Source: Candidatus Sericytochromatia bacterium (GTDB lineage: Bacteria; Cyanobacteriota; Sericytochromatia; S15B-MN24; UBA4093). Taken from it: 64,000 nucleotides of DNA. Both the position numbers and the translations under genes were made by a program. The notes beneath the pieces are model-generated. The model searched no databases. It was not told the DNA's origin and saw only the letters and a list, made by a program, of their open reading frames with translations. Location of the stretch: NCBI GenBank assembly GCA_036676985.1, contig JAKFBU010000056.1, positions 1-64,000 of the forward strand, in the 5' to 3' direction. Of the stretch, positions 10,402 to 25,549 are shown piece by piece. Numbering within the stretch: position 1 is the stretch's first letter; each line of letters opens with the position of its first letter.

Positions 10402-11943
10402 ATGGAACGCTCCGTCCCGCTGCAGCCCGGCTCGATCGTGGGGGCCCAGCGCTCCGCCCTGCTGCAGCTGACCCGGTTGCTGGACATGTCCTCGGATGCC
10501 GTGATGGTACGGGATCTCGACGGCCGTCTCACCTACTGGAACCAGGGCGCCGAGCGTCACTACGGCTGGAAGGACCACGAGGCGGTCGGTCGGATCGGTC
10601 TCGACCTCCTGGGGACCACGCTGCCCGCCCCTCTGGAAGCCGTCGAGGCGGCGTTGCATGAGACGGGTCATTGGGAGGGGCGGCTCTCGCAGGGCCATCG
10701 CGACGGCCACCGGCTCTCGGTCACGAGCCGGTGGGAGGTATTTCGCGACGAGAATGGCCAGCCTAGCGCCGTCCTGCAGGTCGAGCGTCCGGCTCCCGTC
10801 TCACAAGAAGCCGCCGAGTGGGCCGTGGTCCTCGAGGATCTCATCCAGAACCTGCCGGCGACCTTCGTGTATCTCGACACGAACTGGATCTACCGGATCG
10901 TCACGGAGCAAACGGCCCGCTTGATGGGCCTGACGGTCGAGGCCATGGTCGGGCGCCACTTCCTGGAGGTGTTCCCGGATGGCAAAGCGGAAATGGAGGC
11001 CATGCACCAGGCCGTCTGCGTCGAGGGTCGGACCCTCTCGAGCGTCGGGGCCAGGATGCCCATTCCCCAACCGGACGGCACCCAGCTCGAGACCTACTGG
11101 GATTACACCCTGCGCCCGGTCCACGATCGGCAGGGTCGGCTCACGGGCTTCATCTCGCTCGGCTACGAGGTCTCCACGCGCGTGTCCCTGGAGGCCGCGG
11201 TCGCCGATCACACCGCCGCCCTGGAGCGGGCCAACCGCGAGCTCAAGGAGACGGACCGCTACAAGGACGAATTCCTCTCGGTGGTCAGCCACGAGCTCAA
11301 GACGCCCCTCAACTTCATCATGGGCTTCGCGAGCATCCTCGCGGACGAGGTGAACGGGCCGCTCACCCCCGATCAGCACCAGCACGTCCAGCGCATCCAG
11401 GATGGGGCCGAGCGCATGCACGACCTCGTCAACGACCTCCTGGACATCGGGCAGATGGCGGCCGAGCGGTTCCAGATCACGCGCCGCGCGATCGCGCTCG
11501 ACTCGTTGGTAGACCAGGCGATCGCCACCCTGCGCCCGCTGGCCGACCACCGCAACCTCCGGATCACGTCGTCCGGGAGCCTCGCACGAACCCTCCTGGC
11601 GGACCGCTCCCGCATCCTCCAGGTGCTCACCAACCTCATCGGCAACGCCGTCAAGTTCAGCCCCATGGGCGGCGAGGTCCGGGTGGAGGTCCGCGAGGGG
11701 GAGGCGTGCGCCCAAGTGCACATCATCGACAGCGGTCCCGGGATCGCGGCGGACGATCTCGCGCGCCTGTTCGTGCCCTTCAGGCAGATCGACATGAGCC
11801 CGACCCGGCGGGTCGGGGGCACGGGGCTCGGCCTCTACATCTCCAAGATGCTGCTCGAGGCCCATGGGGGACAGATCGGCGTCGAGAGCGAGCCCGGACG
11901 GGGCAGCCGCTTCTGGTTCGAGCTGCCCCTCGACGAGGACTAG
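10402..11943 (+). CDS. cytoplasmic PAS-PAS sensor histidine kinase (no adjacent response regulator)
   Basis: Two PAS/PAC domains, H-box SHELKTPL, N-box [10 protein letters not shown]-boxes DSGPGI and GTGLGL. Confidence 0.92.
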
Positions 11944-13325
11944 AAGCCCAGCTGCACCCCGAGGGCGAGACCCGTCTGGTTGGCCTTGCCGAAGCGCGTC
12001 TCGCCTGTCAGGTAACCCACCGGCGCCTCCCAGACGTTGAGGCCCGCCGTCACGGCCAGCTTCGGCGTCACGTGGTACTCGACGCCCGCCTCCGACGAGT
12101 AGAGGATCAGCCCCGAGGGGTTTGGCGTCGTCGGGTTGCCGCCCGCGAGCTGGGATCCCAGGAGCATGCTCGAGAGCCCGCCCTTGAGGAAGAGACCCCA
12201 GGGTCCGTTGCCTGGCCGCAAGTAGCCGACTGCCCCCACGCCCGGGCCCATGAACAGGTAGCTCTCGCCGGGCGCGAAGTCCGCATACGCGCGCAGGCCC
12301 AGGTAGGGCTGGAGCTGTACTGGGCCCAGCATGGGCACCTGGACCATCACCCCGAACGTCTCGTCGAGGGCCGTGCCCGAAGACGAGCCGGAGCCCAGGC
12401 CCGCCAGCGCGCCGGACTGGAGCTGGAGGCGCGTGTCCGAGAGGAAGAACCAGGATCCCGCATAGCGCACGTACCGCATGCCGAGCGCCTGCAGCATCTG
12501 ACCGTTGCCGCTGGCCGGCAGCCCGCCCGTGACGCCCGAGTCGAGCTCCAGGCGCAGGGGCGTGAGGTCCTGATAGCGTCGGGGGCTCGCGGAGAGGCTC
12601 TCCGCTTCCTTCTGGCGGCCCGTCTCGGCGATGAGCTCGCGGATCTGGGGCACGGTCTGGGAGATGGCCTGCGCGTACTGGTAGCGCGTCAGCTCCTCGG
12701 GCCCGCGGAAGGTGCCGTCCGGAAAGCCCACCATGACCTTGTAGCGCTGCGAGACGTCGAGCACGTCCCGGTAGGCCCAGTCCTTGGGGCTCACGTCCGA
12801 GAACGTGGGGCCATCACCCACCTTGCCGCGCGGGCGCACCAGGTCCTTGGACTCGGCGAGGCGCAGGAGGTTGTCGATGATCTTCGCCATCTCGTAGCGG
12901 GTGACGGTCTTCTCCCCGTTGAACCGATCGGGCGTCACGTCCGGGACGCCCTCGAAGAGGCCGTAGTCGTTGGCGATCGCCAGCACCCGGTCCCGGTCGG
13001 CTCCCGGCTTGACGTCGGCGTAGCTGTTCATCGGGTGGTCGATGGGCCGCCAGGAGGTCTTGCTGAGGGTCTCGAACTCCTTGAGCAGGCTCACGAGGCT
13101 ATCCACGAACTGGAAGCGCGTGAACGGCTTGTCGCCCCGGAAGGTGCCATCCGGATAGCCCCGCATGAGGTCGCGCTTGATGGCCACCTCGGCGACTCCG
13201 ACCTCGGCCCAGTGGCCCGCGGGCACGTCCTGGAAGGTGTCGGAGGCGAGGCTCGCGAAGGCGGGGGCGGCGAGCGCGACGGACATGGCGATCGCGAGAA
13301 CGAACGGGCGGCGAAGCTGCTTCAT
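11940..13325 (-). CDS. S-layer-homology (SLH) domain outer-membrane beta-barrel protein
   Basis: Signal peptide; SLH motifs [16 protein letters not shown] and [15 protein letters not shown]; amphipathic strands ending in terminal Phe (GVQLGF). Confidence 0.8.
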
Positions 13326-13539
13326 GGGGGCTCCAGTCGATCATGGGCCCCGGCCGCACGCCGCGGCGCGGGGGCTTTCCCTATCGTAGCGCGCCCGGTC
13401 CCGGCCGACAACGGCGGGCGTTCGCGTCTCTACCGAGGGTTTGACGCCATGGCCGCCGCCCGGGTTCCCTCGGTTGCGGGAAGGGCCGGTCTTCGTTAAG
13501 ATCTGTGACGTCACCCGCTCGTATCGAAATCAGGAGCCC

Positions 13540-16500
13540 ATGCTGCGCACGCATCCGCCGGACGAACTCGCCGCCCACTTCACGGACCTCTCCGCCTGGC
13601 TCGCCCCGGGCGGGCTCGACGAGGCCGCCGACGCCTTCCTGCAGTATTGCCGCACCGGGGGCAATGCCCCCTACCAGGCGACCAAGACGCTGCATGGCCT
13701 CTTGAAGCCCGACGAGACCCGACACCTGGGCCTCAAGCTGGTGCAGGCCCTCAAGGCCCGCGCGCGGGACGCCCACGACGAACACTTCCGGATCGAGACG
13801 CTCGACATCGAGATCGCCGGCCGGCGGCACCGCCTGGACGTGCTCGTCCTGCCGAGTATCTTCACGCCGGAGGACTGGGGCTACACCTTCCTCGAAGGCC
13901 TCCTGCGCCGCCCGCTCGAGGACTACGACGACAAGACGCTCGTCGAGGTGGGCTGCGGCTCGGGCTGGATCTCCATCGCGCTCGCCAAGTTCACGGACGT
14001 CAAGCGCATCGTGGGCCTCGACATCAACCCGCGGGCCGTCATCGTCAGCGAGGTCAACGCCCTCATCAACTCCTACGACGCGGACGGCCGGCCCCTGTAT
14101 GACCGCTCGCGACGGCTCGTCTTCGAGCGCTTCGAGGTCAAGACCTCCAACCTGTTGCAGGAGGTGATCCAGGGCGGCGAGAAGGTCGACTTCATCATCG
14201 GGTGCATCCCGCAGGTGCTCGCGCCGGACGAGAACCTCGATCTCGCGCGCCTCTCCGAGTACTCGGACTCCAAGCTCCTCGGGGACCTGGGCAACTACTG
14301 CGCCCTGCAAGGCGTCTTCGAGGACCAGTTCGGCCTCGGCCTCAACGCCGCCCTGCTCGAAGAAAGCGTCCGCTGCCTCAAGCGCGACGGCCGGGTCATC
14401 CTCAACCTGGCGGGCCGCCCGGGTGACGGCGTCATCCGCCTCATGTTCACGCGTCGGGGCTTCGAGCCCAAGGTCCTCTGGAAGAGCCGCGTGCCCCAGG
14501 CCTCGGACACCAACATCGAGCCCCTCGTGACCCTGGAGCGCCGCATGGGCAGCGACTTCCAGTTCTTCATGAACCAGGCCTCCAGCGAGCCCATCAACGC
14601 CCAGACGGCCCGCGAGCTGCGCGAGGCGGGCGGCGACCTGTGGCACGATCTGTCGGTCTACGAGGCGCACATGCGCGACCCGGTGGAGCTGCGCGAGCTG
14701 GATCGGCTCCTGGGGCAGCTCGGCCTGAACGCCCTCAAGCGCGAGATCGACCTGACGGCCATGCGAGGCGACCAGCTCGCCTTCATCAACCGGATGGCCG
14801 CCCTGTTGCGCGATCGAAAGAAGGCCCCCTACGTCCACGAGTGCGGCAGCCCGGCCTTCCGGGCGAAGCTCGCGAGCTTCCTCACCAAGCAGTACCAGCT
14901 CGCGCTCGACGCCGACAGCCTGTTCGTGGGCCCGCAGCGCGAGCAGGTCGTCTTCTCCCTCTTGGTCAGCCTCTGCAACCCGGGCGATCGCGTGCTCGTC
15001 AGCCGCAACCTCGCCGACCGCTACCGCCTGGCGGCCAAGAAGGCGGGCGTCCAGCTCACGGTCGCCAACGACACCCTCGAGGAGATCCACCAGCTCATCG
15101 GGCGCTTTGCGCCCAAGGTGGCGCTGATCGCCATCGCGGACCGGGAGCGCAAGAACTGGTCCAGCCTGCGCCGCATGCTCGAGGCCGCGCAGACGGCCGT
15201 CATCCTCGACGAGACCGACGAGCTGGTGCTCAGCCAGGAGGCGCCACCCAACGACGTCCTCGACGTCCTGAACCGCGAGGGGCTCCTCCACGAGGCCATC
15301 GTGCTCGCCGAGTTCGCGGCCCCCGAGACCTTCCCGACGTTCGCCGCGACGGTGGTGGCGAACGCCAACCGCGAACTCATGCGCAACCTCGCCATCATGG
15401 CCGAGGTGACCTACTCGCGCCTCTCCCTGGTCGTCGAGGAATTCTTCCTCAAGCGCGTCGAAGAGGCCCTCGCCTTCTCGATCGTGCCCCAAGGCGGCCC
15501 TGGGCGCTCGGCGGCTCCTGCCGACACCCGCCGGTCCCTGCGCTTCAGCAACCGGATCATCCAGGCCAACGACGCGCCCGCCTTCGAGGAGGTCCCGGAG
15601 TCGGAGGCCGTGATCCGGCTCGACTACGGCGAGAACGAGCTGCAAATCCCCCAGCGCCTGGTCCTCGGGCTGCTCAAGGGGCTGTTCGACCGGCCGGGTC
15701 CCGGCACGGAGCTGCAGACCAAGCAGGCGATCGCCGCCTACCTCTCCGAGACCCGGCAGGTCTCCTACGCTCCCGAGCACCTGGTGCTCGGACAGGGCGT
15801 CATCCCCCTCATCGGGGACGCCATCCGGGCGGTCGGTCGGCGCACGGGGCGATCGCACGTGACCGTCGCCCTGCCGCGCGGCCACTACGGGGTCTTCCCG
15901 CCCCTGATTCAGCTCGCCGACGCGAGCCTGCAGCTCCTGGAGTCCCAGCCCGAGCGGGGCTTCAAGGTGACGGTCGAGGCCCTCGAGCGCCTGCCCTACC
16001 CGCCGGACGCCCTGTTGCTCGTCAACCCCAACAACCCGTCGGGCGTGTACTACGAGCGCCGGGAGCTCTTGGAAATCGCCCGCTACGCCGTGACCCACCA
16101 GATGACGATCCTGAGCGACGAGATCTTCGCCCTGACGGGCGACCCCGAGCGCTTCACCTCGCTCGCCGCCCTGGACCGCGACGTGCCGGGTCTGGCCGAG
16201 CGGGTCGTCACCTTCGGCGGGCTCTCCAAGGAGTTCGCGGCGGGCGGCCTGCGGGTCGGGTACGCCGCGGGGCGCGATCGCGAGCTCATGCGCGACATGG
16301 AAGGCCTCGGCCTGGGGCCGGTGGATGCTGTCGCCATGCGCGCGGCCGAGGTCCTGTTCGGAGCGTTCCGGCGCACGGACCTGGGACGCCTGGTGGACGA
16401 GACGGGCTACCACGAGGTGGTGCGCTACCTCGATCTGCAACGAGAGCATCTGACGATGCGCTACCAGCGCCTGCGCGAGGTGCTCGAGGGCCTGGGGCTG

Positions 16501-16776
16501 GTACCCGAGGCGCCCTGGGCGGGGGGGCTGTTCGTCCTGGCGCCCACGAGCGCATGGCACGGCCGCATCTGGCAGGGACCGAGCGGCCCTGTCCGCCTGG
16601 ACGAGTCCAACCTGCCCGTCCTGTTGCGCGAGGAGGCAGGCGTGCGCGTGAATCCGGGCGAATGGGCCGGGGCTCCGGGGCACGTGCGGATGGTCTTCGC
16701 CCTGGAGGAACGTCGCCTCAACGAAGCCCTGCGACGCCTCCAGGCCTTCGCACATCGACTCGATCCAGAGAAATAG
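13540..16776 (+). CDS. plant-type methionine S-methyltransferase (SAM methyltransferase fused to class I/II PLP aminotransferase-like domain)
   Basis: PSIFTPEDW, EVGCGSGWISIA, GLDINPRA, GCIPQVL, YCALQGVFEDQFGLGL and NLAGRPG match MMT/MmtN motifs. C-terminal NPNNPSG, SDEIF and GGLSKEF..GLRVG. RBS AGGAG precedes ATG 13540. Confidence 0.85.
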   Translation: MLRTHPPDELAAHFTDLSAWLAPGGLDEAADAFLQYCRTGGNAPYQATKTLHGLLKPDETRHLGLKLVQALKARARDAHDEHFRIETLDIEIAGRRHRLDVLVLPSIFTPEDWGYTFLEGLLRRPLEDYDDKTLVEVGCGSGWISIALAKFTDVKRIVGLDINPRAVIVSEVNALINSYDADGRPLYDRSRRLVFERFEVKTSNLLQEVIQGGEKVDFIIGCIPQVLAPDENLDLARLSEYSDSKLLGDLGNYCALQGVFEDQFGLGLNAALLEESVRCLKRDGRVILNLAGRPGDGVIRLMFTRRGFEPKVLWKSRVPQASDTNIEPLVTLERRMGSDFQFFMNQASSEPINAQTARELREAGGDLWHDLSVYEAHMRDPVELRELDRLLGQLGLNALKREIDLTAMRGDQLAFINRMAALLRDRKKAPYVHECGSPAFRAKLASFLTKQYQLALDADSLFVGPQREQVVFSLLVSLCNPGDRVLVSRNLADRYRLAAKKAGVQLTVANDTLEEIHQLIGRFAPKVALIAIADRERKNWSSLRRMLEAAQTAVILDETDELVLSQEAPPNDVLDVLNREGLLHEAIVLAEFAAPETFPTFAATVVANANRELMRNLAIMAEVTYSRLSLVVEEFFLKRVEEALAFSIVPQGGPGRSAAPADTRRSLRFSNRIIQANDAPAFEEVPESEAVIRLDYGENELQIPQRLVLGLLKGLFDRPGPGTELQTKQAIAAYLSETRQVSYAPEHLVLGQGVIPLIGDAIRAVGRRTGRSHVTVALPRGHYGVFPPLIQLADASLQLLESQPERGFKVTVEALERLPYPPDALLLVNPNNPSGVYYERRELLEIARYAVTHQMTILSDEIFALTGDPERFTSLAALDRDVPGLAERVVTFGGLSKEFAAGGLRVGYAAGRDRELMRDMEGLGLGPVDAVAMRAAEVLFGAFRRTDLGRLVDETGYHEVVRYLDLQREHLTMRYQRLREVLEGLGLVPEAPWAGGLFVLAPTSAWHGRIWQGPSGPVRLDESNLPVLLREEAGVRVNPGEWAGAPGHVRMVFALEERRLNEALRRLQAFAHRLDPEK

Positions 16777-16840
16777 GGCGCACCTCGGCTACCGATCTCG
16801 GGTATAACCTCCTTGGTTGTACCCATGAGGAGGGACCGAG

Positions 16841-18751
16841 ATGACCTATAAAGTCGATGGTGGCGGCGGCATCGACGCCGCTGCCCGAGCCAGGGCCGCG
16901 GAAGCGGCTCGCAAGGCCGCCGAGGAAGCCGCGCGCAAAGCTGCCGAAGAGGCCGCTCGCAAGGCCGCCGAAGAGGCCGCGCGCAAGGCTGCCGAAGAGG
17001 CCGCGCGCAAGGCTGCCGAAGAAGCGGCCCGCAAGGCGGCTGCCCGGGAGCAGGAAAAAGAAGCGATCGGCACCAAGGCCGCCGGTCGCTATGCCGCCTA
17101 TGGCGCTCCGGAGGAGGCGGCGGCTCCCCAGGCCAAGCCCGAGACCAAGCCGGCGGCCAAGACCGAGGGCGTCGAGGCCAAGGCGGAGGCTCCCAAGGCG
17201 GAAGCACCCAAGGCCGACGATGGTCCCATGTCCGCGATCGACAACATCCTCAACAAGGTCAAGTCGTTCCTCAACATCGGCGGCCCGGAGGCCTCCGCCC
17301 CCAAGCCGGAGCCTGCCAAGCCGGAGGCCCCAAAGGCCGAAGCGGCGAAGCCGGAAACCGACGCAGCCGCTGGTAAATCCCTCGAGCCGCCCGCCCTCCC
17401 CGAGTCCATCAAGGCCGAGATGGAGCTTGCCAAGGAGCAGGCCATGTCCAAGCAGGCGGACCGCAAGGAGCGCATGGCGAAGCCGAGCGAGGCGGAACGG
17501 ATGGAGCGCGCCAAGGAGCCCATCGCCGCAGACCAGGAGGCCATGTTCAACACCCTGGAGCCGGCTCAGCAGCAGGCCTTCCGGGAGCTTACTCCCAAGA
17601 GCCGCGAGGACTTCAACAAGGTCTACGAGGCCGTGGGCGGCATGTGGGCCGAGCAGCACGACTTCTCTCAGGTGGCCAGCCATGGCATGCGCAAGATGCT
17701 GCAGGAAGGGCGGCTCGAGGTCAAGGACACCACGGGTCAGACGCTCGTCGGCAACCTGGCCGAGCGGGTCGGCCAGGAGCTCCAGCCGTCCATGCAGACT
17801 CACAACACGACGGCCGGCACCCTGATGAGCGCCATCAAGCAGGTGGCCTATCCCGACCAGGTCTGGCAGGGCCAGAACACCAACACCTGCGCGAGCACGG
17901 CCCTGCAGGGCATCATGGCCAACGAGGACCCCGCGGAGTTCATGCGCATCGCCACGGGCCTCGCCTTCGACGGCAAGGTCCAGCTCGCCGGAGGCGCGAC
18001 CCTCGCGCTCGACGCGAGCAAGATCGGCGATGCGACCGACGGCAACCGCAGCGCGCTGAGCCAGGCGGTCCAGACCTCCTTCGATACCTTCGCCAAGACC
18101 TTCCCGGCTGAGTCCGATACGGACTTCGCCGGAGGCCGGGCGGGCGGCGGCGGCCGCTACGGCGGTGGCCGGGTAGGCAGCGCCGACCGCTTCGGCGGCG
18201 GTCGGGCCGGCGGCGGCGGCAAGTACGGCGAGGGCGAGGTCGCTGACGCGGTGGAGGGTGTGGCCGATGCGGTCGCCGCGGGTGTGCAGAGCATCGGCGG
18301 CCGCAACGGCGGTCAGGTCGACGGCGGAGGCCTCACGCAGAACCAGGTCGAGAAGCTCTACGAGAACGTGGTCGGCCGCCTGGCCGTCAACACCTCGGTC
18401 ACCGAGGACAACCGGTTCGACACCATGGACGGGATCGCAGCCTCCCTCGCCAACGGCATCAAGGTCCCGGTGGGGGTGCAGGGCATCGACGATCAGGGCA
18501 ACGCGACCCACCACATGATCACGGTGCTGGGTATCCGCCAGGATGCCAAGGACCCCGGCAACGATCAGGTGGTCTTCACGGATCCGGGCACCGGCAAGCA
18601 GGCCGCCCTGCCCGTGCGGGACTTCACGCAGATCCTCGAGGCCGCGATCATCCCGGCCCAGTTCGCCGACCACATGCGCTGGAACGTGGCCCCCGACTCG
18701 GCGGATCCGTTCGGCGGGGGCCGTGCCGGCGGCGGGGGCCGGAAGGGCTAG
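16841..18751 (+). CDS. Ala/Glu/Lys repeat protein with C-terminal papain-like (C39/C70-like) peptidase domain
   Basis: RBS GAGGAGG; EEAARKAA repeats; Q..NTC (C350), HHMITVLG (H558) and VVFTDP (D581). Confidence 0.6.
   Translation: MTYKVDGGGGIDAAARARAAEAARKAAEEAARKAAEEAARKAAEEAARKAAEEAARKAAEEAARKAAAREQEKEAIGTKAAGRYAAYGAPEEAAAPQAKPETKPAAKTEGVEAKAEAPKAEAPKADDGPMSAIDNILNKVKSFLNIGGPEASAPKPEPAKPEAPKAEAAKPETDAAAGKSLEPPALPESIKAEMELAKEQAMSKQADRKERMAKPSEAERMERAKEPIAADQEAMFNTLEPAQQQAFRELTPKSREDFNKVYEAVGGMWAEQHDFSQVASHGMRKMLQEGRLEVKDTTGQTLVGNLAERVGQELQPSMQTHNTTAGTLMSAIKQVAYPDQVWQGQNTNTCASTALQGIMANEDPAEFMRIATGLAFDGKVQLAGGATLALDASKIGDATDGNRSALSQAVQTSFDTFAKTFPAESDTDFAGGRAGGGGRYGGGRVGSADRFGGGRAGGGGKYGEGEVADAVEGVADAVAAGVQSIGGRNGGQVDGGGLTQNQVEKLYENVVGRLAVNTSVTEDNRFDTMDGIAASLANGIKVPVGVQGIDDQGNATHHMITVLGIRQDAKDPGNDQVVFTDPGTGKQAALPVRDFTQILEAAIIPAQFADHMRWNVAPDSADPFGGGRAGGGGRKG
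16898..17041 (+). repeat. intragenic 24-bp tandem repeat, about 6 units of (E)EAARKAA
   Basis: Units such as GCCGAAGAGGCCGCGCGCAAGGCT with synonymous variation. Confidence 0.9.
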
Positions 18752-18790
18752 CCCCCGGAAAGCCAACAGGCGAGACATTAACCACTCCGC

Positions 18791-18822
18791 GGCGCGGCCC
18801 TCAGGGGCCGCGTCTCCTTTTT
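18791..18822 (+). terminator. intrinsic terminator
   Basis: GCGCGGCCC-TCAG-GGGCCGCGT followed by CTCCTTTTT. Confidence 0.65.
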
Positions 18823-18894
18823 GGCGTCGGTTCGCTCGTTTGCCCGGCCGCATTCCGGGGAACATTACCCACGTCATCGATATGGGGGAACGCC

Positions 18895-20805
18895 GTGCAA
18901 CGCATCGCCAGTTTCAAACGCCTCGCCGCCGTCCTGTCCGTCACGGTCCTGCTGGGCTGTACGCCGAACGGCTTTCTGCCGATCCTCGGAGGGAACGGAT
19001 CCAAGGATCCGACGCCCATCTCGAGCTCGAACGGCGGCCTGATCAGCAACAACTCGGGCGGCATCATCTCGAACAACACCGCGAACCTGGCGGGTCTCAT
19101 CACGGGACCGGGGCAGCTCATCAGCAACAACGCGGGCGGCCTGGTGTCGAACAACGCCGGCAGCTATCGCATCGCGGCCCTGGAGCTCTCTCCGGTCGCC
19201 AACGCCGTGGTCTACCTGACCACGCCGAACGAGCAGTTCTACGCCGGCGACGACGGCAAGGCCCTCTACACCTTCACCGACGACAAGGGCGCCTACACCT
19301 TCGCGAAGGCGCCGGCCGACAAGCCCGTCATCGTCACGGTGCTCCTGCCCAACAACCGGCGCCTGGTCGGCTTGCTCATGTCCAAGGAGGGCGCGAACAC
19401 CCAGAACGTCGACCTCGCGACCACGGTGGTCACGGAGTTCCTGCGCGATCAGGCCCGCCTCGCGGGCAAGACCATGGGCGACTACCCGAACCTCGCCACC
19501 AAGCTCGAGACGATCATCGGCCTGACGCGCGAGCTCATCGCCGCGGGCAAGATGCGCTTCAAGGAGTCCCCGACGGACACCCGCGCGGGTTACGTGGACC
19601 TGGACGTCAACGCGATCCCGGCCCTGCGCAACGAGTACGTCCGCGCCTTCGCGGCGGACGACCAGGCGCTCAGCGATGCCTGGAAGGACCTGCTCGGCTA
19701 CCGCCCCTTGCTCGTCGAAGAGGTCGAGGTGGGGCTCGGTGCCGGCATGCAGCCCCTCGCGGTGGCCACCGACGGCGACAAGACCTACACGGCGGCCACC
19801 AACGCCTACCAGCTCATCGTCACGCGCACCACGGGCTCGGCCGCCGAGACCGTGCTGCGGGTCGCGCGCGGAACGAGCAACCTCGAGTACGTGGGCGGGA
19901 TGCTCGCGAGCGGCAACTCCTTGCTGCTCGGCGTGGCGGGTCTCGGCCAGCTCGAGATCGAGGCCGGCACGACCAACTCGGAAGACCTCTTCTACGATCC
20001 GGCGAACATCTCGGGCGGCGGCCTCGGCTACGTCGCCATGAACGACGCCTACCAAGCGGTTCCGGACGACGACAACAGCTGGGAGCTCTTCTCGGCCTTC
20101 GACGTGGCCAAGAAGGACGAGTGGGTCTACGTCTCGGATGACAACAACCACCGCATCCTGCGCTACCAGGTGGATGACGGAGGCTTCGCCGCAGCCGGCA
20201 CGGGCCAGATCCTGGCCGGCAAGTCCCTCGACGACGCAGGGGCGGGCTACCATGACGGGACCGGCCGCAACTTCTTCAACGGCGACGACAAGCAGGCCGG
20301 GACCGAGGTCGCCCTGAACTACCCGTCGAGCCTCACGGTGCACGAGGCGGACGGCAAGACCTATCTCTACTTCGCGGACACGGACAACCACCGGATCCGT
20401 CGGATCGAGCTCAACGGGACCGACTTCCCGGTGGAGACGGTGCTGGGTCGCGGGACGGTCGCCTACGGCAACATCATGACGCCGATCGTCGATCCCAAGA
20501 TCGACGACCCGGCGGGCGTTGCGGTGGCCTCGGCCTCGCTGAACTTCCCGCACAAGATGGTCTTCGATGCTAACGGCCGCATGTTCGTGGCCGACACGGA
20601 CAACCGGCGCGTCCGGATGCTCGAGAACGGGGTGGTCAAGACGGTCGCGGGCTCGGCCTCCGGCATCTACACCGGCACCGGCGACTCGCGGCGGGTGGGC
20701 CTCGGCGAGGTCACGAGCCTCGCGTGGGACGCCCAGGGCAACCTGCTCATTGCGGATGCCCGGTCGCACAAGCTGCGGCGGCTGCGCCTGCCGTTCGGAT
20801 TCTAG
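18895..20805 (+). CDS. lipoprotein with ISNNxGG repeats and NHL beta-propeller
   Basis: Lipobox LLGC; four [LI][IV]SNN units; NHL blades (YFADTDNHRIRRI, FVADTDNRRVR). Confidence 0.8.
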   Translation: MQRIASFKRLAAVLSVTVLLGCTPNGFLPILGGNGSKDPTPISSSNGGLISNNSGGIISNNTANLAGLITGPGQLISNNAGGLVSNNAGSYRIAALELSPVANAVVYLTTPNEQFYAGDDGKALYTFTDDKGAYTFAKAPADKPVIVTVLLPNNRRLVGLLMSKEGANTQNVDLATTVVTEFLRDQARLAGKTMGDYPNLATKLETIIGLTRELIAAGKMRFKESPTDTRAGYVDLDVNAIPALRNEYVRAFAADDQALSDAWKDLLGYRPLLVEEVEVGLGAGMQPLAVATDGDKTYTAATNAYQLIVTRTTGSAAETVLRVARGTSNLEYVGGMLASGNSLLLGVAGLGQLEIEAGTTNSEDLFYDPANISGGGLGYVAMNDAYQAVPDDDNSWELFSAFDVAKKDEWVYVSDDNNHRILRYQVDDGGFAAAGTGQILAGKSLDDAGAGYHDGTGRNFFNGDDKQAGTEVALNYPSSLTVHEADGKTYLYFADTDNHRIRRIELNGTDFPVETVLGRGTVAYGNIMTPIVDPKIDDPAGVAVASASLNFPHKMVFDANGRMFVADTDNRRVRMLENGVVKTVAGSASGIYTGTGDSRRVGLGEVTSLAWDAQGNLLIADARSHKLRRLRLPFGF

Positions 20806-20810
20806 GGGGT

Positions 20811-22880
20811 ATGGTCGTGAAGCGTTTCAAGAACTATCTTTCCCTGGCTACGGCCCTGCTCCTGGTGGGCTGCCCCGGCGTCCCCGGACCGATCAATACC
20901 AATGGCCAGAATCCTCAGACGGGGACGGCTGATCTGGTCTCCAACAACACGGCAGGCTTCGTCGGATCGGTGCGGGTGCCGGAGACCCTCATCTCCAACA
21001 ACTCGGGCGGCCTCATCTCGAACAACGCCGGGGGTCTGGTCTCCAACAACTCGGGCAGCTACCGGATTGCGGCCCTCGACGAGATTCCGCTCGCCAACTC
21101 CCTCGTTTACCTCTTGAGCCCCAACGAGCACTTCTACACGGACACCAAGGGCCAGCGCTTCGTCACGACCACGGACGCGAGCGGCAGCTACAAGTTCGAC
21201 AAGGTCCTGCCGGAAGGCGCCCAGGTCATCGTCAGCGCCCTGTTGGCAGGCAACCGTCGCATGGTGGGCTACACGCTCGCCGCCAAGGGCGACAACCAGG
21301 TCAACATCAGCGTGGCGACCACCTACGTCGTCGAATTCTTCCGGGCCCAGGCCAAGGCCGCAGGCAAGAACATGTCCGACTACGCGCAGGCCATGGCCAA
21401 GCTGCCGGCACTCGTCACGGAGACGCAGGCGCTGCTCGACGCCGGCAAGCTCCCCCTGCCGGACCTGACCATCGGCAACGCTGGCGCCATGAACAAGGCC
21501 TACTTCGCCGTCTTCGCCGCGCAGAGCAAGACGCTCAGCGACGGATGGGCGGACCTGCTCGGCCATCGGATGATCCCCCTGACCACGGTCGCGGGCAACT
21601 ACGCGCTCGGCTCGCAGCAGGCGGCCGGCGTCCAGGCGACCTCCTTCGGCCTCAACCTGCCGACGGGCGTGGCCGTCGACACCCAGGGCAACGTCTACGT
21701 GGCGGTGCAGCTGCACCACGTGGTCTACAAGATCGCGCCGGACGGCACGACGACGGTACTCGGCAAGTTCCGGGGCGACGGGTCCATCACGACTCCGGTC
21801 ATGGTGCCCGGTCCCGACGCTGTGGACGGGGTGCCGATCGCGGACCTCTCGATCCCCATGCCCCAGGACGTGGCGACCATCGGAGACAACCTGGTCATCG
21901 TGCCGAGCGCCGCCAGCGACGCGACCATCCACAACAACGTCCTGCTCTTCGTCTGCCAGACCACTGGAACCTACTTCGGCAAGCCCATGACCGCGGGCAA
22001 GGTCTACCGGCTGGGGGTGGACAGCGACGAGATCGGAAATGATCCGGTCAGCCGCTTCAAGGACGGCAACGTCTTCACCCAGGCGCGCTTCCGGAGCCCG
22101 CAGGGCGTGGGCACGGATGACGCGGGCAACCTCTTCGTCGCCGATCGCCGCAACAACCTGATCCGGCGCATCGACCTCGAAACCGGTCTGGTCACGACCA
22201 TCGCGGGCAAGCTCACGACCGATGCGGCCGGGACGTACGGCGATCAGCTGGGCAGCACGGCGGCCGTCGAGGGCAGCACGGCCGGCTGGAACGGCATCGA
22301 CAACGGCGACGGCGGCACGGCTGTCGGGGCCGTCATCAACCGGCCCTACGACGTGGCGTGGCGCCGGGTCGGCCCCACCCAGGAGGAGGTCTTCGTCTGG
22401 GAGGGCTTCAACCCGGACCTGGTGCCGGGGACGGCGGCCGCGGACATCATGCTGACGGGCAACGCCATCCGGCGGGTCGCCTTCCCGAGCACCGACCGCA
22501 CGGCGGGCACGATCAGCACGCTCATCGGCGGCAACAAGCAGCGCGGAGACTCGGGTGACGGGGGTCCGGCCGCTTCGGCGCTCATCAAGCTCGTGGATCC
22601 GGCCTTCCCGGACGTGCCGAATGCCGGCATCGCGGTCTCACCGGACGGCAAGTACCTGTATTTCTGCGACTCGCACAACCAGCGCCTGCGCATGGTGGAC
22701 CTCGCGGCGGGCACGGTGCACACGGTCGCCGGCGCGGGAACGGTCGAAGGGGACACGGAGGTCGGGCTGTCCGCCCTCAAGGACGTCTCGGGGCTCGCGG
22801 TAGACGCGCACGGCAACGTGTACTTCGCCGACGCCATCTCGAACGTGGTCCGGCGGATCACCTACCAGTACGGCCGGTAA
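20811..22880 (+). CDS. paralogous lipoprotein with ISNNxGG repeats and NHL beta-propeller
   Basis: Lipobox LVGC; LISNNSGGLISNNAGGLVSNNSGSYRIAAL; NHL blades (PTGVAVD..GNVYV, FVADRRNNLIRRI). Confidence 0.8.
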   Translation: MVVKRFKNYLSLATALLLVGCPGVPGPINTNGQNPQTGTADLVSNNTAGFVGSVRVPETLISNNSGGLISNNAGGLVSNNSGSYRIAALDEIPLANSLVYLLSPNEHFYTDTKGQRFVTTTDASGSYKFDKVLPEGAQVIVSALLAGNRRMVGYTLAAKGDNQVNISVATTYVVEFFRAQAKAAGKNMSDYAQAMAKLPALVTETQALLDAGKLPLPDLTIGNAGAMNKAYFAVFAAQSKTLSDGWADLLGHRMIPLTTVAGNYALGSQQAAGVQATSFGLNLPTGVAVDTQGNVYVAVQLHHVVYKIAPDGTTTVLGKFRGDGSITTPVMVPGPDAVDGVPIADLSIPMPQDVATIGDNLVIVPSAASDATIHNNVLLFVCQTTGTYFGKPMTAGKVYRLGVDSDEIGNDPVSRFKDGNVFTQARFRSPQGVGTDDAGNLFVADRRNNLIRRIDLETGLVTTIAGKLTTDAAGTYGDQLGSTAAVEGSTAGWNGIDNGDGGTAVGAVINRPYDVAWRRVGPTQEEVFVWEGFNPDLVPGTAAADIMLTGNAIRRVAFPSTDRTAGTISTLIGGNKQRGDSGDGGPAASALIKLVDPAFPDVPNAGIAVSPDGKYLYFCDSHNQRLRMVDLAAGTVHTVAGAGTVEGDTEVGLSALKDVSGLAVDAHGNVYFADAISNVVRRITYQYGR

Positions 22881-22885
22881 CGGCG

Positions 22886-22923
22886 AGCGGCCCCGTCCTC
22901 TGGGACGGGGCCGCTTCCTTATT
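22886..22923 (+). terminator. terminator hairpin between convergent genes
   Basis: 13-bp stem AGCGGCCCCGTCC/GGACGGGGCCGCT. Confidence 0.7.
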
Positions 22924-22936
22924 GACAGCTATTTCG

Positions 22937-23005: not shown

Positions 23006-23737
23006 TCAGATCCCCGCCCCATGGATGAAGTCATCCACCTCGCCAATCGGCGTCGGACGCTGGCCGTTCAGCCGCGCCCCCAGGGCCGGCTCCAGGGGCT
23101 CCGTCCCCGTGGAGGCCTGAATGGCCTCCACGGTGGCCTCGAGCTGGTAGATCCGATCCGCCAGGGCCTTGATGGCCTCCGCCTCGGGATCCGGATTGAC
23201 CGCCTTCGACTCCTCGACGGGCTCGCCCTTGATGAAGACCACCCGCCCCGGAATCCCCACCACCGTCGCATGGGGCGGCACGTCCCGCAGGACCACCGAG
23301 TTGGCCCCCACCCGCGCGTGGTCCCCCAGCGTGATGTTACCGATCACCTTGGCACCCGCCCCCACGATGACCCCGTTGCCGAGGGTGGGATGGCGCTTGC
23401 CGCACTCCTTGCCCGTACCGCCCAGGGTGACGCCGTGGTAAATGAGGCAGTCGTCCCCCACCACCGCCGTCTCCCCGATCACCACGCCCATGCCGTGGTC
23501 GATGAAGAGCCGCTTCCCGATCCGGGCCCCCGGATGGATCTCGATGCCCGTCACGAACCGGGCGACCTGCATCATGGCCCGCGGGAAGAAAGGCACCTTC
23601 CGGCCATGCAGCCAATGCGCCACGCGATAGATGGCCAAGACATGGACCGAGGGGTAGCAGAGCACCACCTCGAGCCAGCTCTTGGCCGCCGGATCCTGCT
23701 TCAGGATGGAACGAACGGACTCTCCGAAGTCTCCCAC
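23006..23737 (-). CDS. cysE: serine O-acetyltransferase
   Basis: DPAA, TGIEIHPGA, FIDHGMGVVIGET, GVTLGGTG..KRHP and VVGIPGR motifs. Confidence 0.96.
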   Translation of the reverse strand: MGDFGESVRSILKQDPAAKSWLEVVLCYPSVHVLAIYRVAHWLHGRKVPFFPRAMMQVARFVTGIEIHPGARIGKRLFIDHGMGVVIGETAVVGDDCLIYHGVTLGGTGKECGKRHPTLGNGVIVGAGAKVIGNITLGDHARVGANSVVLRDVPPHATVVGIPGRVVFIKGEPVEESKAVNPDPEAEAIKALADRIYQLEATVEAIQASTGTEPLEPALGARLNGQRPTPIGEVDDFIHGAGI

Positions 23738-23747
23738 GTCCGCTCCC

Positions 23748-24731
23748 TTACTTGGCGGCAGACGACGCGGCCTGGGCCTCGGTGTTGAAGAGCGGAGTAC
23801 TCAGGTAGCGCTCGCCGCTGGAAGGCAGGACGACCACGATGAGCTTGCCCTCGGCCTCGGGACGGCGGGCGATCGCGAGCGCCGCCTCGACGGCCGCCCC
23901 GCTCGAGATGCCGACCAGGAGGCCTTCCTCCTTGGCAATCCGCCGCGCCATGGCCATGGAGGCCTCGGAGGAGACGGCGACGATCTCACCCAGGCTCTTG
24001 TCGCGCAGGCCCGCGAGCAGCGTCTGGTCGAAGAGCCCCGGAATGAAGCCCGGGCCGATGCCCGCGATCTTGTGCGGCGAGGGCTCGCCGCCCGCGAGCA
24101 CCTGGCTCTCCGTTGGCTCGACCGCGACGTAGCGCAGGCCCGGCTTCTTGGCATGCAGAGCCTGGTAGAGCCCCGTGATGGTCCCGCCCGTGCCCACGCC
24201 CGAGACGACGTAGTCCACCTGGCCCTCCGTGTCGTTCCAGATCTCCATGGCCGTGGTCTCGGAGTGGATCTTGGGGTTGGAGGGATTCTCGAACTGACCG
24301 AGGATGTAGCCGTCAGACGTGCCGGCGAGGATCTCGTTGGCCTTGGCCACCGCGCCCTTCATGCCCTTGGGACCCTCGGTGAGGACGAGCTCCGCGCCGT
24401 AGGCCTTGAGCAGCGCCCGGCGCTCGAGGGACATGGTCTCGGGCATGGTCAGGATCAGGCGGTAGCCGCGGGCGGCCGCCACCATGGCGAGCGCGATGCC
24501 CGTGTTGCCGCTCGTGGGCTCGATGAGAGTGGTGCGGCCGGGCGTGATGAGCCCCCGCTCCTCGGCATCCTGGATCATGGCCACGCCGATCCGGTCCTTG
24601 ACGGAGCTGGCGGGGTTGAAGCTCTCGACCTTGCCCACGACCCGGGCCTTGAGGCCCTCGGTGATCTTGGTGAGCTCGACGAGCGGGGTGTTGCCGAAGC
24701 GTTCGGTCACGTTGCGGGCGATGTTCGCCAT
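23748..24731 (-). CDS. cysK: cysteine synthase A
   Basis: GNTPLV, SVKDRI (PLP Lys), [16 protein letters not shown] and ERYLST motifs. Confidence 0.96.
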
Positions 24732-24853: not shown

Positions 24854-25414
24854 CTAGCTCGTAGGCGGCAGGTCCCCGTCGCTCAGGTAACGCATTGGCT
24901 GGCTGTGGGCGGTGCCCGTCTCCAGGTCGAAAACGTCCATCACGTCGAGGGGGCCCGCGTAGAAGTGGAGGGTCAAGAGGCGGGTGCCCGCACCGCCGGC
25001 ATTGCCGAGGCGGTGGATCATGCCCACCGGCGCGACGGAGAGCGCTCCGGCCGCATGGTCGAGCATGGTGGTTCGCTCGACCCGGTCGCCCTCGAGCCGC
25101 CGGAAGATCTCCTCGCGCATGGTCCCTTCCACGATCCGAACGACGCCGTAGGACCGACCGTGGTTGTGGACGCTCGTGCGCTGCTCGTCCTGCCAGCAAA
25201 GCAAGATGGCCTCGAAGAGCTCGTTCTTGAAGAGCAGGTTGCGCGCGTAGGCCTCGGAGCAGTACTGGACGCGGTCCGCGTACAGGTCCGGGCTCATGTC
25301 CAGCCGGGAGACGAGGTCCTTGAGGTGAGAGAGCTTGAAGGTCTCGGGGGTATAGGCCGTCGTCTCGGTCAGGAACTGGTCCCAGCTCAGGGCGTGTTGG
25401 GCGGGCATCTTCAT
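24854..25414 (-). CDS. cysteine dioxygenase family (bacterial Gly-type thiol dioxygenase)
   Basis: YARNL, TSVHNHG..YG, IHRLGN and TLHFY define a 3-His cupin. Confidence 0.85.
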
Positions 25415-25508
25415 CGATCCTCGGGACATGGTCGGCGCGCATGGCCGGCCATCAGGGGCTTTTCGCAGCAACGTCGCTACGAACGCTCCCTCGTCGAGGA
25501 GCAAGGGT

Positions 25509-25539
25509 ATTGTCCAACGGGCGGCCCCGATTGTCCAAC
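25509..25539 (-). promoter_or_regulatory. 10-bp direct repeat with 21-bp period overlapping a putative sigma70 promoter of cdo-cysK-cysE
   Basis: ATTGTCCAAC at 25509 and 25530; the minus strand reads TGGACA-17 nt-GACAAT. Confidence 0.55.
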
Positions 25540-25549
25540 CGGAGATCGT

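Follow-up and report, generated by a model that had tools for sequence, protein, structure and literature searches.

A plant-like methionine S-methyltransferase homologue in Sericytochromatia

The locus described here raises the question of what a full-length homologue of plant methionine S-methyltransferase (MMT) does in a bacterium, and of how it came to lie in a genome related to those of cyanobacteria. It is found on a stretch of 64,000 nucleotides (hereafter the window: positions 1 to 64,000 of contig JAKFBU010000056.1, assembly GCA_036676985.1) from Candidatus Sericytochromatia bacterium, and the host class, Sericytochromatia of the Cyanobacteriota, agrees with the cyanobacteria-related host proposed in a preliminary description of this DNA. 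In our opinion the evidence as a whole is best explained, with a probability of about 0.6, by a Group III MMT in the sense of Peng 2022 that forms S-methylmethionine (SMM), carries a composite pyridoxal 5'-phosphate (PLP) site and was acquired horizontally.

The gene occupies an open frame that runs on the + strand from a TTG at 13441 to position 16776. Taking the ATG at 13540 as the start codon, which has an AGGAG upstream and whose position is shared by the closest homologues, yields a protein of 1078 amino acids. The G+C content at third codon positions (0.93) is similar to that of the neighbouring genes, in a window whose GC content is 63–73%. A scan of positions 13200–17000 for promoters and terminators returned no promoter-like and one terminator-like site, without excess over shuffled sequences, and no RNA data set was listed among the runs that contain the stretch. 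The gene and its parts, with S-adenosylmethionine abbreviated as SAM and aspartate aminotransferase as AspAT, are the following:

13540..16776, + strand: MMT-family gene, 1078 amino acids plus stop (open reading frame (ORF), translation, homologues)
13540..14721, + strand: N-terminal SAM-dependent methyltransferase module, residues 1–394, with an MmtN-like core at about 108–338
13951..13965, + strand: GxGxG SAM-binding motif (G138, G140, G142), invariant in 101/101 aligned sequences
14722..15564, + strand: middle degenerate aminotransferase-like module, residues 395–675, without PLP lysine
14830..14832, + strand: codon of Y431, in the motif Y431-x4-G436-x4-R441
15565..16773, + strand: C-terminal complete class I aminotransferase fold, residues 676–1078 (PF00155)
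16228..16230, + strand: codon of K897, the predicted PLP Schiff-base lysine (GGLSKEF), aligned to K234 of Thermus AspAT

The protein proved to be a full-length, collinear homologue of plant MMT, as had been claimed: the rice enzyme can be aligned to it along the entire length, 1097 columns being 27% identical (E 8e-118), and that of Selaginella over query residues 26–1071 against 9–1084 (E 1.9e-99), and the best homologues reach E = 0. All four motifs quoted in the preliminary description are present in the translation (PSIFTPEDW at residues 105–113, GCIPQV at 221–226, YCALQGVFEDQFGLGL at 253–268 and GGLSKEF at 893–899).

Domain, profile and fold comparisons show that three modules are joined in this protein, namely an MmtN-like SAM methyltransferase, a degenerate aminotransferase-like part and a complete class I aminotransferase fold. 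Pfam places methyltransferase models (PrmA/MTS) on residues 124–210 and Aminotran_1_2 (PF00155) on residues 725–1067 (115.3 bits, cut-off 19.7), and no NCBIfam equivalog model reaches its cut-off, the best being GntC with 114.5 bits against 415. A single-chain AlphaFold2 model for which an alignment of 84 sequences served as input reaches a mean predicted local distance difference test (pLDDT) of 92.9 and a predicted template modelling score (pTM) of 0.91. Superposition of residues 665–1077 with VIA-align on the class I aminotransferase 4my5 gave Z 42.0 and, over 369 residues, 2.4 as the root-mean-square deviation, and Foldseek concurs with this fold (template modelling score 0.79–0.86 on the target). 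The 1-aminocyclopropane-1-carboxylate (ACC) synthase 7dlw, with Z 41.5, stands level with the aminotransferases at Z 40–42; by sequence, ACC synthases match the protein at merely E 1e-5 to 1e-4, and Thermus AspAT matches the C-terminal part at about E 1e-19 to 1e-20. In the VIA-align comparison of the whole model the aminotransferase fold filled the list, and the methyltransferase and middle modules were assigned by sequence and profile instead.

The middle module, which had been suspected to be a degenerate domain, is confirmed by profile comparison as a diverged copy of the aminotransferase fold, homologous to the last module. In hhalign, residues 395–675 match residues 676–1078 with a probability of 97.6 (E 2.8e-12, 203 columns), and in this alignment the position of the lysine holds another residue; a 33-sequence profile of the region likewise matches class I aminotransferases (2gb3, E 1e-6; 1j32, E 3e-4). 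Some relatives are longer: several proteins of 1200–1800 amino acids (P0192, P0195, P0198, P0203 and others) have 350–700 additional N-terminal residues in which no Pfam family was found, and one (P0184) begins with a YbaB-like domain and may be a gene-call fusion.

The methyltransferase module

Conservation was analysed in 85 bacterial homologues, comprising the window protein, 10 database proteins and the products of 74 loci, and compared with 16 plant MMTs. The 74 loci derive from 80 of the 178 found, after removal of six with frames shorter than 950 amino acids (five short relatives and L051). In the methyltransferase module, 62 sites are at least 95% conserved among the bacteria and 60 of them are kept in plants; since these sites are held in common, the module very probably does, to judge from its sequence, what plant MMT does, converting methionine and SAM into SMM and S-adenosylhomocysteine. 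Its identity to the plant enzymes amounts to 42–43%, compared with 17–21% for the middle and 20–21% for the last module.

The N-terminal part also matches a solved chain of 305 amino acids entitled 'SAM-dependent methyltransferase' (7vvv, E 7.1e-10, residues 108–338), presumably the structure of MmtN from Peng 2022. The GxGxG motif is aligned to G46-x-G48-x-G50 of this chain, and in the pairwise alignment D161 corresponds to D69 and C222 to C121, both of which are counted among the SAM-binding residues of MmtN (Peng 2022, PMC9135737; here and below, statements from this paper refer to the accessible part of its text). P169 and R183, which form in MmtN a phosphate pocket required for the trimer (Peng 2022), are aligned to F260 and E274, in a pairwise alignment of low identity anchored on the common GLGLN.

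A predicted PLP site kept in bacteria and lost from plants

The C-terminal module presents another picture, since only 12 of its 29 sites that are at least 95% conserved in bacteria are kept in plants, whereas the middle module keeps 11 of 15. In AspAT, a lysine forms the Schiff base with PLP, an aspartate interacts with the pyridine nitrogen and an asparagine with O3', one arginine binds the phosphate and another the substrate carboxylate, and a tyrosine (Y206 in Thermus) donates a hydrogen bond to O3' of PLP. Sequence alignment of the window protein to the Thermus enzyme makes N832 equivalent to N175, D860 to D203, K897 to K234, R905 to R242, R1050 to R361 and Y783 to W125, with F863 at the place of Y206. 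By this alignment the C-terminal fold lacks only one tyrosine from the canonical set of residues that bind PLP and the substrate carboxylate, and the canonical lysine that had been attributed to the last domain is indeed in place.

N832, D860, K897 and R905 are present in 85/85 bacterial homologues, Y783 in 82/85 and R1050 in all 83 sequences that reach its column, two loci ending earlier. The intact PLP site is thus a feature of the whole bacterial family, not specific to the window gene. Plant MMTs, in turn, never have the lysine (T, Q, P, S, F or L in the 16 sequences), always have asparagine at the position of Y783 (16/16) and lack R905 in 15 of 16 cases; the sites conserved in bacteria and lost from plants concentrate in the C-terminal module (R693, Y696, G697, G753, Y783, K897, A901, R905 and F998). 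Such conservation of the putative active site makes PLP chemistry of some kind more plausible, without thereby identifying the substrate. Our literature search found no paper discussing the PLP-site residues of MMT, though it did not cover Bourgis 1999, Kocsis 2003 or Williams 2019, which may bear on this point.

A composite site and its possible mechanism

In Thermus AspAT, Y64 (Tyr70* in the pig numbering) reaches into the active site of the neighbouring subunit. The corresponding position in the last module of the window protein is R718. In the middle module, Y431-x4-G436-x4-R441 is aligned to the Y-x4-G-x4-R motif of the Thermus enzyme (Y64, G69, R74), and Y431 is kept in 85/85 bacteria and 8/16 plants. 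These motifs and the single-chain model suggest that the middle and last modules pair up within the chain as a pseudo-dimer that has a single active site; the PLP module of the bacterial family is probably single-site.

According to the mechanism that we propose, the N-terminal module would methylate methionine on its sulfur, with SAM as the donor, and so give SMM as plant MMT and MmtN do. The two aminotransferase-like modules would pack as an internal pseudo-dimer around a single composite PLP site, to which the last module would contribute K897, N832, D860, R905, R1050 and Y783 and the middle module Y431, in replacement of the tyrosine donated by the partner subunit in ordinary dimers; one composite site would be retained, and the other would have been lost on both halves. 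This putative site would bind PLP and run or sense a second reaction on an alpha-amino acid, for which SMM or methionine would be the most plausible candidate.

A more ambitious version of this mechanism, which we advance only tentatively and consider doubtful, is that bacterial MMTs are bifunctional, making SMM and then using its dimethylsulfonium as a leaving group or handle in the PLP pseudo-dimer, and that plants kept the first half only. The second step might be an ACC-synthase-like elimination or cyclisation with release of dimethyl sulfide, or a transamination towards 4-dimethylsulfonio-2-oxobutyrate. If this were true, a single protein would provide a route from methionine to a new product. 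More generally, if the PLP site were catalytic, what textbooks call the 'aminotransferase-like domain of unknown function' in MMT would be left over from a second enzyme, and SMM in soil bacteria would be an intermediate and not an end product.

Family tree and distribution

Relatives are encoded by 178 loci when one genome per species is taken from 185,579 species. Most belong to Myxococcota and to Silvanigrellales/Oligoflexia; the other carriers are Holophagaceae, Planctomycetota, Bacteroidota, a few Actinomycetota, Xenococcaceae cyanobacteria, Melainabacteria and one Sericytochromatia. In unrooted trees built with FastTree (92 rows) and IQ-TREE (48 rows) the family splits into two clades, 28–45% identical to each other, with a support of 100 on each side in both trees. 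Plants are nested in one of them among Acidobacteriota, Xenococcaceae, Oligoflexia, Bacteroidota and the other Sericytochromatia genome. The window protein falls in the other, which is mainly myxobacterial and also includes Planctomycetota, Holophagaceae, Actinomycetota and Melainabacteria. There it groups with four metagenome proteins (61–86% identical), and this group is sister, with support 100, to proteins of Myxococcales and of deltaproteobacterial metagenome-assembled genomes; the closest named relatives are Myxococcota, with 38–46% identity.

The term 'plant-type' used in the preliminary description therefore holds for the architecture of the protein but not for its phylogeny, the mainly myxobacterial clade being recovered in both trees with support 100. 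The suggestion that the gene may inform the origin of plant MMT was not borne out either: other bacteria lie closer to plants, so that the window gene, in the other clade, says little on this origin; the FastTree and IQ-TREE results disagree on which of those bacteria come nearest. What emerges is a family with two deep clades.

One locus, L064, is titled Comamonas sp. and is nested in the Myxococcus clade with branch lengths of 0.04–0.05, and its name or bin may be wrong. As for database names, the closer relatives of the window protein are called aminotransferase or methylase at JGI and 'aminotransferase class I/II-fold PLP-dependent enzyme' at NCBI, and the more distant plant-like homologues (29–31% identical) are, where named, 'methionine S-methyltransferase' at JGI. 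Surveys based on annotation would overlook the clade of the window protein.

Horizontal acquisition within a 9.7-kb block

A search with the methyltransferase module detects MMT in 3 of 301 genomes sampled from the phylum and in 2 of 47 from the class, the own genome included, and in none of nine other genomes of the family that are 81–100% complete. The two Sericytochromatia copies fall in different clades. Five genomes of the same family, from three genera, have the order MetRS-TatD-PolX-Nth-x-MiaB-Upp-CinA-SLH-Hexapep as far as the respective stretch reaches, their shared syntenic proteins being 38–84% identical to those of the window; in all five the SLH and Hexapep genes adjoin, with no match to MMT or to the three genes downstream of it in the stretches searched. 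The segment concerned is composed as follows:

10402..11943, + strand: histidine kinase (PAS/HisKA/HATPase), between CinA and the SLH gene
11940..13325, − strand: left flank, SLH-domain protein (Pfam SLH), 38–53% identical in five same-family genomes
13263..22931, no strand: lineage-specific block of about 9.7 kb (MMT and three repeat-protein genes), absent from relatives
16841..18751, + strand: downstream gene 1, repeat-rich (ORF; no Pfam family found)
18895..20805, + strand: downstream gene 2, NHL/beta-propeller repeat protein (Pfam NHL, TEN_NHL)
20724..22880, + strand: downstream gene 3, SGL/NHL beta-propeller, paralogue of gene 2 (Pfam SGL, NHL, SBBP)
23006..23800, − strand: right flank, hexapeptide-repeat transferase (Pfam Hexapep), 58–69% identical and beside SLH in relatives

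Because the gene is present in only 2 of 47 class genomes, the two copies belong to different clades and five relatives are syntenic without it, these data show that MMT came into this lineage of Sericytochromatia horizontally, as part of a block of about 9.7 kb. That it is an heirloom of the cyanobacterial lineage is contradicted by its sparse distribution in phylum and class and by the synteny kept without it. At least two separate transfers have brought the MMT family into the cyanobacteria's non-photosynthetic sister lineages. In a check for mobile elements, neither direct nor inverted repeats were seen at the edges of the block.

The contig of the window itself is genuine, since public contigs span the SLH–MMT junction and the flanks are syntenic with the family. 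In runs X2 and X3 a contig of 3830 letters covers positions 13167–16996 and with them the junction between the SLH gene's 5' end and MMT, and in run X4, of another study, a contig covers 13203–13821 and hence the same junction. In one X3 contig, which is about 90% alike, position 13262 is followed directly by 22932, as would be the case in a relative whose site is empty; this is a weak indication, given that the short side has only 36 letters. A same-genus genome (G076, 87% complete, 610 contigs) lacks both MMT and the match to the flanking CinA and is uninformative on the block.

The histidine kinase gene at 10402–11943 has no match in the syntenic stretch of the five same-family genomes and is a second lineage-specific gene beside the MMT block. 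Within the block, downstream gene 1 has six tandem copies of 24 nt at 16871–17062, encoding a repeat rich in Ala, Glu, Arg and Lys at the start of the gene, and Gly-rich repeats of 33 nt at 18124–18240. Downstream genes 2 and 3 have the direct repeats D2, D5, D6 and D14 in common, with shared blocks about 1870–1900 nt apart and repeats of Ser-Asn-Asn-x-Gly-Gly type as well as NHL/SGL repeats; their listed frames overlap by some 80 nt, and one of the starts probably lies further downstream. In two same-family genomes of one genus (G055:C30 and G112:C153, loci L097 and L098) the CinA matches each contain one in-frame stop, TAG and TGA, respectively.

Gene neighbourhood and the SMM cycle

The preliminary description stated that no accessory genes of dimethylsulfoniopropionate (DMSP) synthesis are adjacent, and no methionine, SMM or DMSP gene was in fact found beside MMT, nor was any decarboxylase, amine oxidase or aldehyde dehydrogenase gene found near it in the window. 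Across the window and the same 80 of the 178 loci, the recurring neighbours are only lineage-bound housekeeping genes; one further cluster of apparently conserved neighbours was discarded, being no more than the shadow ORF antisense to MMT. In Silvanigrellales (L030, L031, L038 and others) MMT lies among rpoB, the genes of ribosomal proteins L1, L10 and L11, a cytidylate-kinase-like gene, uridine kinase and CinA. The window MMT is about 3 kb from CinA/Upp, a pair that is older there than MMT according to the relatives, and the likeness to Silvanigrellales is probably a coincidence. A cysteine dioxygenase type I-like gene (24854–25549, − strand; Pfam CDO_I, E 3.9e-10) is located some 8 kb from MMT and is unlinked to it, given that it occupies the same place in relatives without MMT.

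Elsewhere in the own genome (G000:C1:105960-110272; loci L089, L090) there is a YitJ-type bifunctional homocysteine S-methyltransferase/methylenetetrahydrofolate reductase (NF006396, 752 bits against a cut-off of 453), beside which a frame of 1180 amino acids with the same N-terminal domain is probably MetH. YitJ-type homocysteine S-methyltransferases use SMM, and because the genome has one an SMM cycle in the host is possible.

Alternative explanations

Several points weigh against the explanation that we favour. The equivalent of Y206 is F863, a position that is Phe or Tyr across the bacterial homologues and mostly Phe, and owing to this replacement ordinary transamination may be poor. The PLP site would be dispensable for methionine methylation, since plant MMT works without the lysine. 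Many of the 85 bacterial sequences are close relatives from Myxococcaceae and do not amount to 85 independent tests, and the geometry of the putative pseudo-dimer rests on motifs and on the pTM. With regard to methionine binding, for which R132 and E250 are assigned in MmtN, with E127 listed for both SAM and methionine (Peng 2022), R132 falls in an insertion, E127 is aligned to A228 and E250 lies outside the aligned stretch. Finally, none of the genes nearby hints at a pathway: in the window and 80 of the 178 homologous loci (763 ORFs) there is no recurrent neighbour from methionine, SMM or DMSP metabolism.

The absence of the lysine from all 16 plant MMTs, which are nevertheless the reference methionine S-methyltransferases, could be taken to mean that the protein is an ordinary SMM-making MMT in which the aminotransferase-like part is a scaffold, an oligomerisation or a ligand-sensing module, as it has to be in plants, any bound PLP being structural. 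The presence of F863 instead of the usual tyrosine would fit with this, as would the occurrence of PLP-fold effector domains, such as that of GabR, among the fold matches (Z 32–33). We regard this explanation as unlikely, if deserving serious attention, for it leaves unexplained the strict retention of the lysine, both arginines and the trans tyrosine across two clades that are only 28–45% identical, and it is precisely these PLP-site positions that decayed in plants. Doubt might also be cast on the methyltransferase, which could act on something other than methionine, such as whatever the PLP site makes or a different thioether or selenoether amino acid, its likeness to MMT being family-level only. 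The generic NCBI and JGI annotation of the window clade, and the three methionine-binding residues of MmtN (Peng 2022) that cannot be mapped, would allow for such a substrate, but the 42–43% identity and the 60 of 62 conserved sites in common with plant MMT make it very improbable.

With an intact PLP site and with SMM as the first intermediate of the methylation pathway, the protein might instead initiate DMSP synthesis, the PLP site transaminating or decarboxylating SMM on the way to DMSP. One of the four Group III strains tested does make DMSP, but the other three do not (Peng 2022). The runs that contain most of the stretch are, moreover, metagenomes of soil and groundwater (they come from two studies, and either may be its source), no decarboxylase, amine oxidase or aldehyde dehydrogenase gene is near MMT, and the 80 of 178 homologous loci surveyed show no recurrent neighbour from methionine, SMM or DMSP metabolism. 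We consequently hold a role in DMSP synthesis to be improbable, and the earlier proposal that this organism makes DMSP precursors is disfavoured by the habitat and by the proportion of producing strains. That the nearest named relatives are Myxococcota and that the estimated contamination of the assembly reaches 5.09% could raise the suspicion of a mis-binned or chimeric myxobacterial fragment, foreign to the host genome. Such an origin is hardly credible for a gene inside a long contig whose flanking genes on both sides are collinear with, and 52–84% identical to, those of same-family genomes, and for which contigs of X2, X3 and, from the other study, X4 run across the start of MMT and the SLH gene's 5' end.

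Comparison with known systems

Our preferred explanation, an SMM-forming Group III MMT with a composite PLP site, can be set against four known systems. MmtN (Group I) has a homologous methyltransferase core, with the GxGxG motif and with D69 and C121 at the places of D161 and C222; it differs in being a stand-alone protein of 305 amino acids, compared with the three modules and 1078 residues of the window protein, in which F260 and E274 are aligned to the trimer-pocket residues P169 and R183. The class I aminotransferases (Thermus AspAT 1bjw/1b5o, 4my5) and ACC synthase (7dlw) share with the last module the complete fold (Z 42.0 and 41.5) and, as aligned, the lysine, asparagine, aspartate, both arginines and the ring-stacking aromatic residue. 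The window protein departs from them in having Phe at the Tyr206 position and in lacking a Tyr64 equivalent in its last module, the tyrosine being supplied, in our proposal, by a degenerate fused copy and not by an identical subunit.

Plant MMT (Selaginella, Marchantia, Oryza, Amborella and 12 others) resembles the window protein in length, in its collinear three-part architecture and in its methyltransferase module, with the identity of 42–43% and the 60 of 62 common sites. In contrast, the other two modules are only 17–21% identical, the clades are separate, and plants lack K897 and Y783, for the most part R905 and in half of the cases Y431, all of which the window protein has.

The closest system is that of the full-length, plant-like Group III MMTs of bacteria, which are known from some members of the Deltaproteobacteria and the Oligoflexia (Peng 2022, with reference to Williams 2019), are unlinked to DMSP, non-ribosomal peptide synthetase (NRPS) or methionine-cycling genes and have a role that was called hard to predict (Peng 2022). 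The window protein is of the same family and likewise has no linked DMSP, NRPS or methionine-cycling genes. Its host differs, Sericytochromatia being a group not named in the accessible text, and the string 'cyanobacteri' occurs nowhere in that paper; the C-terminal part is there termed an aminotransferase domain, with no discussion of active-site residues (Peng 2022). The gene thus encodes a bacterial MMT homologue of an already published kind, to which our analysis adds the conservation of the PLP site, lost in plants.

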